DNA of 64,000 bases from Deferribacterales bacterium (lineage in GTDB: Bacteria > Chrysiogenota > Deferribacteres > Deferribacterales > Geovibrionaceae): the NCBI GenBank assembly GCA_050253335.1, contig JBFWJG010000003.1, forward strand, positions 14,143-78,142, read 5' to 3'. Below are positions 42,001 through 45,000 of this stretch, one piece after another. The position numbers are program-made. How positions within the stretch are numbered: the first letter of the stretch is position 1; the number at the start of each line of letters is the position of its first letter.

Positions 42001-45000
42001 GCCGCCTATCCCGCATACAAGAATAACGGAAGAGATGATCAGGTTTCTGGGTTTGGACATATCGACTTTAGCCCTGACGAGGGAGTTGATGCCTATGCCC
42101 GCTATCATTCCGAAAAGAAGGAACATGATTCCGCCCATTACGGGAACGGGAATAGTTTTAAGCACAGCGCCGAGCTTGCCGAAGAAAGCAAGGCATATGG
42201 CGAACACTGCCGCTATGCGCATATACATAGGGTCAAAAGCCTTTGTGAGCGCCACTGCGCCTGTAACTTCGGAATATGTGGTATTGGGAGGTCCGCCGAG
42301 AACGCTTGCCATGCTTGTCGCAAGACCGTCACCGAGGAGTGTTCTGTGGAGCCCGGGGTCTTTGAGGTAGTCTTTCCCCGTGGTGGAGCTTATTGCGAGA
42401 ACATCGCCCACATGCTCAATAGCAGGAGCAATGGCAACAGGGAGTATGAATATAATCGCTTCTATGTCAAACTGAGGAAATGCGAAGGAGCCGTTTCTGG
42501 AAGCCTCTATCCACGGAATGGAGATCCATGCCGCCTGCATTATGGGCTCAAAGCTAACATGCCCCATGATGAGGGCTGCGATATAGCCGACACAGATTGC
42601 AGTAAGTATCGGGATAAGGCTGAGAATTTTTCTGCCGTATGCAACTACGACTATGGCGGTAAGGAGGGTTATTCCGGCGAGGATTACCGCTCTTATGCTG
42701 TACTGACCGTCACCGAAGTGCTTTGTCATCCCCACGGCAACAGGAGCGAGGTTAAGGCCTATCACCATAATAACGGGGCCTGTGACAATCGGCGGGAGGT
42801 ATTTTTCTATGGCCTTCACTCCGCCCTGCTTCACAAGAAAGCTGAAAAGAATGTATGTAAGCCCCGCACAGGTGAGACCGCCGAGGGTTTTGGCAACGCC
42901 GAAATTCTGCATTCCGTATTGAATGGGTGCGATGAATGCGAATGAACTAGCAAGAAAAACAGGTACTTTACCCTTAGTGACAACCTGAAAAAGCAGAGTT
43001 CCGGCGCCTGCGGTAAACAGGGCGATAGACGGGTCAAGCCCCGTCAGCAGGGGGACGAGAACCAGTGCTCCGAATGCCACGAAAAGCATCTGAAGCCCCA
43101 GAATAGTCTTCTTTACTCCCGAAATGTTCTCCATAAAACCTCCTTAATATAATAATAAAAATTTTTCCATCCCTGGAAAATTTTTATACACACTCGCGGT
43201 CTGTAAAACAGACCTTCGTTCGCACGGCGCGCTCCCTTCTACTTAACAACAGTAATCCGTACATCCTGTCGGATTACTGTACACGCTCGCGCCGTGATAA
43301 ACACGGCTTCGCTGCGCACGGCGCGCCCCCTTCCATGGGAGCGTTTATGACTCACGCATCTCATGGAAAATTTTATACACGCTCGCGCCGTGGTGAACAC
43401 GGCTTCGCTGCACACGGCGCGCTCCCTTCTACTTAACAACAGTAATCCGTACATCCTGTCGGATTACTGTACACGCTCGCGCCGTGATAAACACGGCTTC
43501 GCTGCGCACGGCGCGCTCCCTTCTACTTAACAACAGTAATCCGTACATCCTGTCGGATTACTGTACACGCTCGCGCCGTGGTGAACACGGCTTCGCTGCG
43601 CACGGCGCGCTCCCTTCCATGGGAGCGTTTATGACTCACGCATCTCATGGAAAATTTTTATACACGCTCGTCTTCGCTGACCCTATCCGGCTGTTGAGAC
43701 TCTTCGCATAAGCTCAGAGTGACGCTGTTCAGTGTGTCATTCTGAGGCACAGCCGAAGAATCTCCATCCCCCTTTGCAAAGGGGGAAAGAGGGGGATTTC
43801 AGATGCTGTTTCCCGCTCATCGGCAGACCTTGACCCGCTCTGATTCGGATGCTTTCAGTCCGCCTTACTAAGTTTTACTCCGATACAAAAAACAATAATT
43901 ATGAAAGATTTAACCGACGATTGAAGATACGGATACAGCACACGGCGCAAACGCACAACAAAACATTTGATATTAAATTAATATTCTTTTCAGATCAAGC
44001 GGTGAATAAAAAGCTAATAAAAAAAGCCGCTCCTTTTCAAAAAAGAGCGGCCTCAGTATTCCGTGTTTATTCCGTTCTGAACTTTCTCACCAGACTATCC
44101 AGCTCTTCAGCCAGTCTCTGGAGATCCGTTACTGTCCGGCTGACCTCTGCCATGCCGGAGGAGCTTTCCTCCACACCGGCGGAGATAACCTGAACATTAT
44201 CGTTTGTTCCGGCTATCGCCCTGCCCTGTTCGTCCACCGCTGTTCTTATCACGGCCATGGCGGAACGGATGTCATTAACAGCGTCCACAATATTGTTAAA
44301 ATACCCGTCCACTTCCTTAATAGCCCCGACACCTTCATCCACTGTTTTTTCTGCTTTGTCCATATGGACGGAGGCGCTCTTTGTCTCAGTCTGAAGGCTT
44401 GTGATCAGCCCGCCGACCTCTTTGGTGGCGTTCTGGGTTCTTTCCGCCAGCTTGCGCACCTCATCGGCTACAACGGCAAAGCCTCTGCCCGCCTCACCTG
44501 CTCTTGCGGCTTCGATAGCGGCATTCAGCGCAAGAAGGTTTGTCTGATCCGCAATATCGTTAATGACGCTTATTATATCTCCTATTCTGGAGGATGCCTC
44601 ACCCAGTTTGCCTATTGAGCCTGCCAGCCTGCCGGTTTCAGCGCGGATGCCCTCGATCCTTCCCACAGCCTCAGTGAGCTGTCTGCGTCCGTTTTCCACT
44701 GTTTCCGAAGCTGTTTCGGAAAAGCTTATGCCGTCTGTCAGGCTTGCGTTTATTTCTCCTGCCGAGGCGCTCATCTCCTCAAGAGCGGCGGCAACTCCGG
44801 AAACCTGCGCCGCCTGTTCCTGAAAAGTGCTCGAGAACTGTTCCGTGGTTGAAGCCAGCTCCGAGTTGCCTGAGGCCACGCCCGCGGCATTCAGCTTCAC
44901 TTCGGAAATTATGCCGTTTATCTTTGATATAAATCTGTCAAAATGATCGCAGAGCACGCCCAGTTCGTCATGCACCCTGCTGTTAATTCTTCTTGTGAGG

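Follow-up and report, generated by a model that had tools for sequence, protein, structure and literature searches.

A 64-kb stretch of a Deferribacterales genome, which we call the window, contains copies of what is a new family of BOX/YPAL/BIME-like, non-autonomous and recently mobile repeats of the Deferribacterales. That the element is a structured and dispersed intergenic repeat, placed mostly in the sense direction and mobile in the recent past, is directly observed, and we hold this part of our explanation with very high confidence. The whole chain that we favour, in which the mobile repeat would also display loops predicted to be bound by CsrA, is a tentative proposal that falls a little short of probable. 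Structured repeats scattered through a genome, among them REP, BOX, ERIC and YPAL, are common, and to our knowledge neither a mode of spreading nor a function has been established for most of them.

Fold of the element and its array in the window

The element is about 113 nt long, and its unit comprises, in order and all on one strand, a hairpin P1, a mini-hairpin of 3 bp, hairpins P2 and P3, and a short tail; P2 stands under an internal loop, GAA/GCGA, on which a helix of 2 bp is stacked as its closure. Compensatory double changes occur in 25 of the 28 base pairs (RNAalifold), in agreement with the 20 of 27 pairs that the survey's finding had reported. Moreover, 91.1% of cells pair, against 66.2% in shuffles (none of the 500 reached the observed value) and 38-43% with slid partners. 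The fold is strand-specific: 420 unique hairpins from two genomes contain 169 G:U pairs on the GGA strand versus 38 when the complement is folded. Stem sequences differ among copies yet stay paired. The unpaired letters of the core are kept, also in a second Deferribacterales family with 34-39% G+C, and those of the internal loop and the junction are conserved, while the loop of P2 is variable.

The apical loops are conserved as well, with P1 reading CCANGGANGG and P3 reading either ACAGGAUGU or the P1 type; both show GGA as C-[A N G G A N]-G. The survey's observation of GGA in both loops is confirmed by its presence at the apex of 113 of the 138 folded P1 hairpins (152 units with sequence) and 127 of the 140 folded P3 hairpins (150 units with sequence); among the unique hairpins of two genomes the counts are 148 of 188 and 208 of 232. 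The P1 consensus is C C A N G G A N G G, with fixed letters at 82-91%, and GGA is retained in distant copies from genomes of 34-39% G+C. From the GGA of P1 to that of P3 the spacing is 67-69 nt in 217 of 231 units.

Three other readings of parts of the unit were rejected. The core GCGNAG C could be read as a DNA mini-hairpin with a GNA triloop, a motif of DNA mini-hairpins; the covariation favours the hairpin CGC-CGU-GCG, in which G-C is replaced by A-U in 4 of 60 units. A kink-turn at the GAA/GCGA internal loop was dismissed by inspection, since the strands misfit the scheme of a 3-nt bulge with tandem G.A pairs. A promoter spanning the P2 loop and the junction between core and P3 would fit only 8 of 149 units, even with a loose -35/-10 pattern, and a promoter scan of the array gave 3 weak sites where 1.0 was expected.

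The array in the window consists of five head-to-tail units and one fragment at 43147-43690 on the minus strand. It sits between minus-strand ORFs at 44067-46019, upstream, which encodes a methyl-accepting chemotaxis protein, and at 41905-43134, downstream, which encodes an NCS2/uracil permease, and it has the same sense as both. Its 5' end is the fragment (43640-43690), in which the 3' part of a core whose P2 is missing is fused to the 5' half of a P1-type P3; the junction block recurs at 43354-43400, in a direct-repeat family (D1) read from the sequence. Unit 1 (43525-43637) is complete, with P1 loop CCAUGGAAGG, mini-hairpin, P2, P3 loop ACAGGAUGU and tail; its hairpins fold, and it scores 121.9 bits (E 1.9e-37) against R1, our covariance model built from 60 units. 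Unit 2 (43431-43525, contig 57573-57667; 90.4 bits) lacks the 5' arm of P1 and is joined within the P1 loop, its core and P3 being complete. Unit 3 (43358-43431; 42.6 bits) also has no 5' arm of P1 and has a full core, and its P3 ends after the 5' half. Unit 4 (43241-43353; 122 bits, E 1.8e-37) is again complete. Unit 5 (43147-43241, contig 57289-57383; 68.4 bits), which is without the 5' arm of P1, has a P2 stem that differs in a compensatory way (GGUCUG/CAGACC) and a P3 whose loop, CCAGGGAUGG, belongs to the P1 type and places GGA at 43172-43170.

This last GGA precedes by 29 nt the GGA in the Shine-Dalgarno (SD) sequence of the permease gene, whose start region at 43132-43145 on the minus strand comprises the SD AAGGAGG (43145-43139) and the ATG (43134-43132). 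Just past the upstream gene, a terminator-like hairpin of 14 pairs, 6 of them G-C, with a T-rich tail occupies 44023-44054 on the same strand; transcription of the array is not assured, because this predicted intrinsic terminator (44054-44023) precedes it. A second locus in the window (48986-49216, minus strand) holds two head-to-tail units at 48986-49098 and 49105-49216 that score 118.7 and 92.1 bits with R1. One contig of a metagenomic run (X1), probably derived from DNA, joins 43181 to 43371 and represents a form of the array that is 189 nt shorter.

Distribution, placement and orientation

Genome-wide, we found 155 core matches with nhmmer and 151 matches to R1, both at E<=1e-3, which form 97 loci of 1-5 units each; the survey had counted 149 matches and 100 loci. 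A complete congener carries 227 copies within 460 kb. Across the phylum, the element is present in 28 of 68 genomes and in two Deferribacterales families, bearing out the spread described earlier. A strict core pattern searched against 185,579 species genomes, a set from which near relatives of the window may be absent, returned 37 stretches, all from one Deferribacterales genome record. Plasmid and phage collections gave zero matches to the element. When 42500-44500 was compared with Rfam by cmscan (E<=10), the two matches obtained were due to chance and fell outside the array, and the earlier statement that the element matches no Rfam family therefore holds. In metagenomic data, only three runs reach 6-7% of the sampled words; they include element cores from a relative, and all of it is in the form of contigs, which cannot show transcription, ends or strand of the units.

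The copies are strongly confined to spacers, with a gene overlap of more than 30 nt in only 5 of 97 loci. Loci between co-directional, convergent and divergent genes number 48, 23 and 3, whereas spacer length predicts 41, 10 and 23 (p 2e-8); divergent promoter regions are thus depleted about 7-fold and convergent spacers enriched 2.3-fold. The placement just after stop codons and shortly before the next start, which the survey had noted, recurs in our counts: in 23 of 73 loci the distance from the upstream stop to the beginning of the element is -1 to +10 nt, and in 19 of 48 a gap of 15-35 nt separates its end from the next start. Between co-directional genes, 40 loci are sense and 8 antisense (43 and 8 in the survey), and in the complete related genome G029 the sense loci are 39 of 53. 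It is possible that about four fifths of the copies between co-directional genes are transcribed in sense, in 3' UTRs or between cistrons.

Such a position may also suit an RNA element with a different job, such as a barrier to 3' exonucleases or a processing site that tunes how stable cistrons are relative to one another, in the manner of REP/BIME, ERIC and Correia elements, or an insulator of translational coupling, with another protein or the ribosome at the GGA loops. We regard this as quite unlikely. The enrichment in convergent spacers together with the 3' UTR and intercistronic placement, the 23 of 73 loci whose element begins no more than 10 nt from a stop codon, and the four stable hairpins of a strand-specific fold are all consistent with it, and it has room for the conserved letters of the internal loop and junction, which CsrA leaves unexplained. 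A decay barrier, however, requires stems rather than conserved loops, and constraint on the element is strongest in its loops, although that of P2 varies. Docking of ribosomes is disfavoured because the P1 and P3 loops avoid the SD form GGAGG, G being rare on both sides of the triplet (3% at -1, 9% at +3).

Orientation depends on the direction of replication as much as on that of transcription, as the survey had cautioned. Leading-strand copies make up 75 of the 97 loci of this genome and 63 of the 90 of G029. When these two genomes, whose counts are not independent because they share loci, are pooled, loci beside leading-strand genes are sense in 71 cases and antisense in 12, and beside lagging-strand genes sense in 8 and antisense in 10 (Fisher p 5e-4). 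Antisense copies are as intact as sense copies, with cores of 43 versus 44 bits and like rates of P1 and P3 hairpins and of GGA, which suggests that conservation may reflect the needs of copying rather than a local function of the RNA.

The leading-strand bias, the 8 of 18 sense loci at lagging-strand genes and the intact antisense copies are compatible with a purely selfish DNA element, whose hairpins would form in single-stranded DNA at the replication fork and whose end loops would be recognised by a copying protein. Placement behind genes would then mark only tolerated insertions, and the likeness to CsrA sites would be coincidental. The fast turnover, target duplications and module exchange described below point the same way, as do flanking genes without a common function and the presence of a like loop motif at both ends on one strand, in the manner of the end-binding sites of transposons. 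We consider this explanation unlikely, though deserving of serious attention. There is no candidate enzyme among the two profiles searched (below), and duplications of 12-98 nt with ragged tails are unlike the product of one site-specific enzyme. The 4.4-fold excess of G:U over A:C suits RNA better, G:T being weak in DNA. Selfish DNA also sits poorly with the 71:12 sense bias at leading-strand genes, with the 7-fold avoidance of divergent spacers, and with loops that keep the exact form of the genome's own flagellin-leader hairpins.

Insertion, turnover and relation to known repeats

The survey had proposed a mobile module acting at the level of RNA. Its mobility is supported by target duplications, and hence at the DNA level, whereas a mechanism at the level of RNA is conjectural. 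Of 64 orthologous loci filled in G029, 31 are without a core in this genome. New in this analysis are two insertions of resolved polarity and target duplications of 12-98 nt at 40 of 170 loci. The first insertion is found in G029 only and has a 26-nt target duplication. The second, between pheS and pheT, has a duplication of 29-33 nt, and its site is empty in two congeners and two outgroup genomes with readable loci, which do not include the G029 locus. Flanking repeats of at least 12 nt, seen at these 40 loci, occur in only 6 of 507 mismatched controls. For 24 of the 40, the end of the upstream copy falls between -8 and +12 nt relative to a stop codon; the duplicated stretch is mostly the 3'-terminal codons of the upstream gene as far as the stop, so that both flanking genes keep their signals. 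Tandem duplication alone cannot be the source of these repeats, as it predicts n repeats per n units and none after a single unit, and 25 of 71 single-unit loci bear one.

Orthologous arrays differ in their P2 and P3 modules, some units are 5'-truncated, and 3' tails are ragged. Arrays may lengthen and shorten through unequal recombination between target duplications, and P2 and P3 modules may be swapped by gene conversion. Only 4 locus pairs underlie the substitution counts for orthologous copies, and module replacement confounds these counts, which therefore give no test of selection. At one locus (L095) the target seemed to have been the source of the 3' arm of P3; the leftover of an earlier unit fits better, and other loci lack such a pattern.

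The search for an inserting enzyme covered the profiles PF01797 and PF00078. None of the 4 genomes of the genus has a match to Y1 transposase (PF01797), as the survey had stated, and the same search was positive in 6 control genomes. Reverse transcriptase (PF00078) is absent from this genome (G000), G027 and the complete G029, each with many copies; G028 has one match. Insertion may be the work of host replication or repair or of some other enzyme, rather than of Y1 (RAYT), and a reverse transcriptase would be an unlikely inserter because three of the four genus genomes are without one. A SINE-like retro-element, in which a processed RNA that begins at the stop codon and extends to the tail behind P3 would be reverse-transcribed into nicked targets, could produce the long variable duplications, ragged 3' tails, 5'-truncated units and strand-specific structure. 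It is nonetheless highly improbable, as PF00078 has no match in three copy-rich genomes of the genus, the 3' tail is not A-rich, and a leading-strand bias is not predicted.

The element also falls outside several established classes. MITEs have terminal inverted repeats and short target duplications of fixed length, whereas the leader (AAAC..) and the tail (..UUAAGUCAG) of the element show no inverted relationship, its two GGA loops share a strand, and its duplications range from 12 to 98 nt. Palindromes derived from IS200/IS605 have a TnpA (Y1) partner and no target duplication, the reverse of what we found on both counts. The BOX element of Streptococcus pneumoniae is a modular intergenic repeat with tandem internal modules in variable number that folds as RNA, and the likeness, one of description only, lies in this modularity and folding; like the element, BOX has no known transposase, but its modules are not known for GGA loops or long target duplications. 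The REP/BIME sequences of proteobacteria share with the element a high copy number, an extragenic position mostly behind genes, mosaic arrays and co-transcribed hairpins, and REPs no farther than about 15 nt from a stop codon influence how the gene ahead of them is translated. REPs go with a RAYT (Y1) transposase (PMC2817692). They are single palindromes of 20-40 nt that alternate in orientation within BIMEs (REPIN-RAYT systems), whereas the element is 113 nt long, stands head to tail on the same strand in 196 of 196 neighbouring unit pairs, and occurs without PF01797.

Like the element, the 168-bp intergenic repeat YPAL/RU-2 of Yersinia is non-autonomous, lacks TA ends and terminal inverted repeats, and has target duplications of variable length, given as 3-26 bp in a published description (PMC2229807); its filled and empty sites likewise vary between close species. 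The element is set apart by its host phylum and length, by duplications of up to 98 nt that usually end at a stop codon, and by four separate hairpins with conserved GGA loops in head-to-tail arrays.

GGA loops as candidate CsrA sites

As the survey had noted, fliW and csrA are adjacent in this genome, with csrA at positions 10985-11215 of contig C12; they form an ordinary FliW-CsrA pair, and the CsrA aligns with the solved CsrA/RsmE chains 1T3O, 5DMB and 2JPP (E 1e-13 to 1e-17). Both flagellin leaders contain a predicted C-AAGGAA-G hairpin 23 or 33 nt ahead of the GGA in the SD, again in accord with the survey, and the P1 and P3 loops share the C-[A N G G A N]-G form of these hairpins. This match to the genome's own predicted flagellin-leader hairpins makes CsrA binding plausible, and marks the P1 and P3 loops as candidate CsrA docking sites on the basis of sequence. 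The flagellin (hag) leader sites of FliW-CsrA bacteria share with P3 a hexaloop, A(N)GGA(N), that a C-G pair closes and that stands 20-35 nt upstream of a GGA-containing SD. Among 25 loci with a same-strand start within 70 nt, 18 have both triplets, and in 14 of these 18 abutting loci the GGA of P3 lies 21-36 nt before that of the SD; an A(N)GGA hairpin loop with a second GGA at the SD within bridging distance, the arrangement of a CsrA cis site, is therefore present. One CsrA dimer bridges sites 10-63 nt apart, and the 68-nt spacing of P1 and P3 within the element is slightly larger. Flagellin leaders are single-copy regulatory sites, whereas the element is a mobile repeat with an extra conserved mini-hairpin, P2 and internal loop that are dispensable for a CsrA site.

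In the chain that we favour, the transcript would display two A(N)GGA(N) loops at a fixed distance of 67-69 nt, and CsrA would bind both. A P3 loop 21-36 nt before an SD could mimic the flagellin leader and render the downstream cistron repressible by CsrA, and the remaining units may serve as low-level CsrA sinks or as barriers to RNA decay. The co-occurrence of element and CsrA is uninformative here, because 60 of the 68 genomes of the phylum encode CsrA, among them 32 of the 40 that lack the element. The genes beside the units are mixed housekeeping genes (pilT, cmk, ribBA, gatA, dnaG, rpmE, leuC, purD, secE, rplJ, pheT, aspartate kinase), and the neighbours of the loci form no coherent regulon.

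The survey's boldest suggestion, a sponge role for tandem arrays, is supported by none of our tests. As in the CsrB/RsmX/Y/Z families, many GGA triplets are repeated in short hairpin loops, up to ten in a five-unit array; no curated covariance model of those families matches, however, and CsrB and RsmZ each come from one dedicated sRNA gene that has a promoter and a terminator to itself, whereas the hairpins of the element are spread over about 100 mRNA loci. Organisms with FliW-type CsrA are not known to use sRNAs of the CsrB/RsmZ type. Hundreds of high-affinity sites in abundant mRNAs would be expected to drain a FliW-type CsrA heavily. It is tempting to speculate further that the element is a transposase-less cassette that plants pairs of CsrA sites at the ends of translation, so that dozens of housekeeping cistrons (pheT, rplJ, gatA, secE, dnaG and others) would have come under FliW-CsrA control, with arrays of up to 8 units as mRNA-embedded sinks in a lineage for which we know of no sponge sRNA. 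A host process linked to replication and transcription would insert the cassette at the end of translation, duplicating the last codons and leaving the neighbours unharmed. We judge this extension distinctly improbable.

If CsrA binding is true, no earlier repeat family known to us has dispersed the sites of a global translational regulator genome-wide; literature searches found none reported, and such spread would offer a simple route for the rewiring of regulons. Even if CsrA binding is false, the family lends itself well to the study of insertion at gene ends that is independent of a transposase. In either case it offers unusually clean handles, namely a covariation-backed fold of four helices, constrained loops, insertions polarised by outgroups, and long duplications that leave intact both the stop of the gene ahead and the ribosome-binding site of the gene that follows. 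The element deserves an entry in Rfam or Dfam. It also breaks assemblies, with 18 of the 97 loci lying within 300 nt of a contig end.

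Fold of the repeated unit

The fold of the element is established by covariation in an alignment of 60 units, one per locus and picked out of 87 eligible loci. RNAalifold predicted 28 pairs, with compensatory double changes in 25 of them, and standard pairs fill 91.1% of the cells versus 66.2% in 500 column shuffles, none of which reached the observed value; sliding the partners by 1-3 columns left 38-43% of the cells paired. Even the small helices covary: A-U replaces G-C at the middle pair of the mini-hairpin in four of the 60 units, and the 2-bp closing helix has three double changes. 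Read along the element strand, the consensus begins with a leader, often AAAC, followed by P1, whose 6-7-bp stem varies in sequence and whose apex is CCANGGANGG, and by a mini-hairpin (CGC-CGU-GCG) stacked directly on it. After NA and the letters GC come GAA and P2, in which both the 6-7-bp stem and the U-rich loop vary; then GCGA and the letters GC, which pair with the earlier GC; and then GUGUA and P3, whose 10-13-bp stem is A-rich on the 5' side and U-rich on the 3' side and whose apex is ACAGGAUGU or of the P1 type. The tail UUAUUAAG(UCAG) follows P3. No Rfam family matched the element at E<=10.

Among 420 unique P1 and P3 hairpins from two genomes, 169 G:U pairs lie on the GGA strand versus 38 on the complement, so that the structure must have been selected, or inherited, on one strand. 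The strand with the GGA fold is the mRNA strand in most copies. Biased mutation of the non-template or leading strand could contribute to this excess, but would hardly make it four-fold.

The array in the window and the spread of the element

The survey's finding of a genome-wide repeat in arrays of up to five units was borne out in nearly every number. The array at window 43149-43666 lies in the spacer between two minus-strand ORFs, with a methyl-accepting chemotaxis protein gene (44067-46019) upstream and an NCS2/uracil permease gene (41905-43134) downstream, and its units stand head-to-tail on the same strand. R1, the covariance model of the element, recovers two complete units (43525-43637 and 43241-43353, each scoring 122 bits) and one truncated unit (43358-43431); its whole-genome run, with 14142 subtracted from contig coordinates, places the others at 43431-43525 and 43147-43241. 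By sequence reading, a core fragment at ~43640-43690, also on the minus strand, precedes the array. The P1 5' arm is absent in three of the five units, so that the joins between units fall within the P1 loop. A strong terminator-like hairpin is predicted directly 3' of the chemotaxis-receptor gene (44023-44054, minus strand), and the array occupies part of the stretch from this hairpin to the permease start. A contig of sequencing run X1 (labelled RNA-Seq, probably DNA) joins window 43181 to 43371; this array form, 189 nt shorter, points to a copy-number variant in a related population. R1 and sequence reading place a second, two-unit locus at 48986-49216 (minus strand).

Other repeats lie nearby. 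A dispersed motif, GAGAyUCUUCrC-N-yUCAGArUGAC, often in inverted pairs and with ~96 loose pattern matches genome-wide, occurs on the minus strand at window 43690-43760 and 49290-49375, and frequently adjoins the element or the truncated end of its arrays. Another, at window 43762-43800, reads CCCCCUUUG..AAAGGGGGA and then GAGGGGGA, with 16 pattern matches in the genome.

Genome-wide, R1 gave 151 matches and an iterated nhmmer profile 155 core matches at E<=1e-3. The 97 loci (55 with one unit, 30 with two, 9 with three, two with four and, in the window, the only one with five) and the copy number are lower bounds, as at 18 of these loci a contig ends no more than 300 nt away. Runs of N fall within a three-unit array on contig C10 (45752-46133). 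Together, the N runs and the loci near contig ends suggest that the element fragments the assembly and that its copy number is underestimated. In G029, a complete congener of 2,997,552 bp, all 150 candidates scored gave a match, and 227 cores at 90 loci were counted in the 460,634 bases around matches, the longest array having eight units. Of 68 genomes of the phylum, 28 gave a match: 16/16 in the window's family, 12/21 in a second family and 0/31 across eight others. The second-family copies (34-39% G+C) keep the architecture, with GGA in nearly all P1 and P3 loops shown. A strict core pattern matched one Deferribacterales genome record only among 185,579 species genomes, and plasmid and phage collections gave no match.

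Insertions with long target duplications, often at stop codons

The direction of two insertion events is resolved. In G029, a 26-nt direct repeat of a gene's end brackets a unit behind that gene; the same site in this genome and in its congener G027 has one copy of the 26-nt sequence without the element, and in the third congener, G028, and seven outgroup genomes it is a short spacer. In this genome, a unit between pheS and pheT has a 29-33-nt flanking repeat ending with the pheS stop TAG. This site is empty in G027, G028 and two outgroup genomes of two other genera, a polarity read with G029 and three further outgroup loci in reverse orientation left out. In the empty state the stop overlaps the pheT Shine-Dalgarno (SD) sequence as TAGGAG, and both stop and SD are retained after insertion. 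These resolved insertions and their long target duplications are an addition to what the survey reported.

The duplications are not confined to these events. Repeats of 12-98 nt (median near 33) flank the element at 40 of 170 loci (26/80 in this genome, 14/90 in G029), and 6 of 507 mismatched upstream/downstream pairs reached the same score; single-unit loci have them in 25 of 71 cases. The upstream copy corresponds to the 3' end of a same-strand upstream gene at 24 of these 40 loci, where it ends -8 to +12 nt from the end of the stop codon; at 15 loci it ends within -3 to +6 nt. All three stop codons are used, and in a few cases the junction is inside the stop codon. Under selection alone the left junction could lie anywhere from stop to SD. 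The tail has a ragged end (..AAG, ..AAGUC or ..AAGUCAG(C/U)), and the downstream copy comes after it.

Between G029 and this genome, 64 orthologous loci with flanks ~75-95% identical were compared. Thirty-one are filled in G029 and lack a core in this genome, although some of these absences may be gaps in a draft assembly, and most others differ in unit number. All 196 pairs of neighbouring units are head-to-tail, and their periods cluster near 90-99 nt, where units lack the P1 5' arm, near 110-129 nt, and near 140-159 nt, where a repeat adds to the unit. P1 and spacer are retained in orthologous arrays, but the P2 and P3 modules differ between the two species, which suggests gene conversion or template switching among copies.

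Arrays may grow and shrink by unequal recombination between the duplications. Insertion itself may occur by a copy-choice process linked to replication or repair, or through some other enzyme; this would explain why duplications vary in length, why the tail is ragged, why modules form mosaics and why the element favours the leading strand. The survey's proposal of mobility at the RNA level is not supported. Y1 transposases are absent from all four genomes of the genus, and RVT_1 reverse transcriptases from three of the four.

With a purpose-written dicodon-based caller (2434 genes, 90% coding), an overlap with a gene exceeds 30 nt at only 5 of the 97 loci. Where genes lie on both sides (74 loci), the spacers are 48 co-directional, 23 convergent and 3 divergent, versus 41, 10 and 23 expected from spacer length (p 2e-8). 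The distance from the upstream stop to the start of the element is -1 to +10 nt in 23 of 73 loci; in 19 of 48 the element ends 15-35 nt ahead of the next start, start positions being approximate.

Of the loci between co-directional genes, 40 of 48 in this genome and 39 of 53 in G029 are sense; over all loci, 75 of 97 and 63 of 90, respectively, have the element on the leading, G-rich strand. GC skew puts the G029 origin at ~0.14-0.23 Mb and its terminus at ~1.67 Mb. In G029 the skew changes sign between ~132 kb and 233 kb, so the origin is not at position 1 of the record, and taking it there would assign the wrong replichore to the first 0.13-0.23 Mb. Sense and antisense loci number 38 and 4 at leading-strand genes in this genome (33 and 8 in G029) and 2 and 4 at lagging-strand genes (6 and 6); the pooled contrast, 71/12 versus 8/10, has a Fisher p of 5e-4, overstated because many loci are common to both genomes. 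Neither transcription nor replication alone suffices to explain the orientation bias; both weigh about equally.

We file the element among the dispersed structured intergenic repeats, nearest in behaviour to YPAL, BOX and BIME; no published description was found in the literature searched, whose scope did not take in subscription journals. Membership tests rejected REP-RAYT, MITE, IS200/605-derived and CsrB/Rsm assignments. The closest precedent found in print is YPAL/RU-2 of Yersinia, where target duplications are said to be 3-26 bp (PMC2229807), versus 12-98 nt here.

GGA loops and their likeness to CsrA sites

The loops are constrained. GGA stands at the apex of 148 of 188 unique P1 and 208 of 232 unique P3 hairpins, and the consensus of the P1 apex is C(87%) C(84%) A(82%) N GGA N G(91%) G(84%). 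G directly precedes GGA in 3% and directly follows it in 9%, so the loops avoid a Shine-Dalgarno form. Within a unit the two GGAs are 67-69 nt apart in 217 of 231 cases.

Hairpin loops with A(N)GGA are targets of CsrA/RsmE proteins; RNAs of the CsrB type carry such loops repeatedly, and a single dimer can span two sites separated by some tens of nucleotides. In this genome fliW and csrA are adjacent, and its CsrA aligns with solved CsrA/RsmE chains, including RNA complex entry 2JPP. Both flagellin genes have a predicted leader hairpin, C-AAGGAA-G, at -33 or -43 and the SD AAGGAGGAUG; its loop form is identical to that of P1. A same-strand start lies within 70 nt at 25 loci, with GGA in both P3 and SD at 18 and 21-36 nt between them in 14 of these, compared with 23 and 33 nt in the flagellin leaders. 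CsrA binding, as the survey proposed, is the most concrete reading of the loops, by which P3 and SD would imitate a flagellin leader. The likeness is real and specific, yet likeness only, and the further proposal of a sponge found no support. Against the CsrA reading, antisense copies are equally intact (core 43 versus 44 bits and similar hairpin and GGA rates, hence no more decayed than sense copies), neighbouring genes have no common theme, and a predicted terminator precedes the window array. Of the 40 genomes that lack the element, 32 also have CsrA.

The downstream genes are mixed housekeeping genes: pilT, cmk, cdsA-like, ribBA, gatA, dnaG, rpmE, leuC, purD, secE, rplJ, pheT, aspartate kinase and two-component proteins. 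On contig C50, units at 8801-9004 and 6556-6648 lie directly ahead of rplJ (18 nt before its start) and secE, whose leaders hold autoregulatory RNA structures in other bacteria. The RNA runs, which are contigs with small shares, carry no weight for or against transcription of the element. A bidirectional terminator-like hairpin, GAGAAACCC-U run / A run-GGGUUUCUC and then AACUCUUCCC, recurs at C12 ~25000-25100, C29 ~14850-14950 and C23 ~19930-20000; it lies 3' of the element in several 3' UTRs, which would place those units within the transcribed part.
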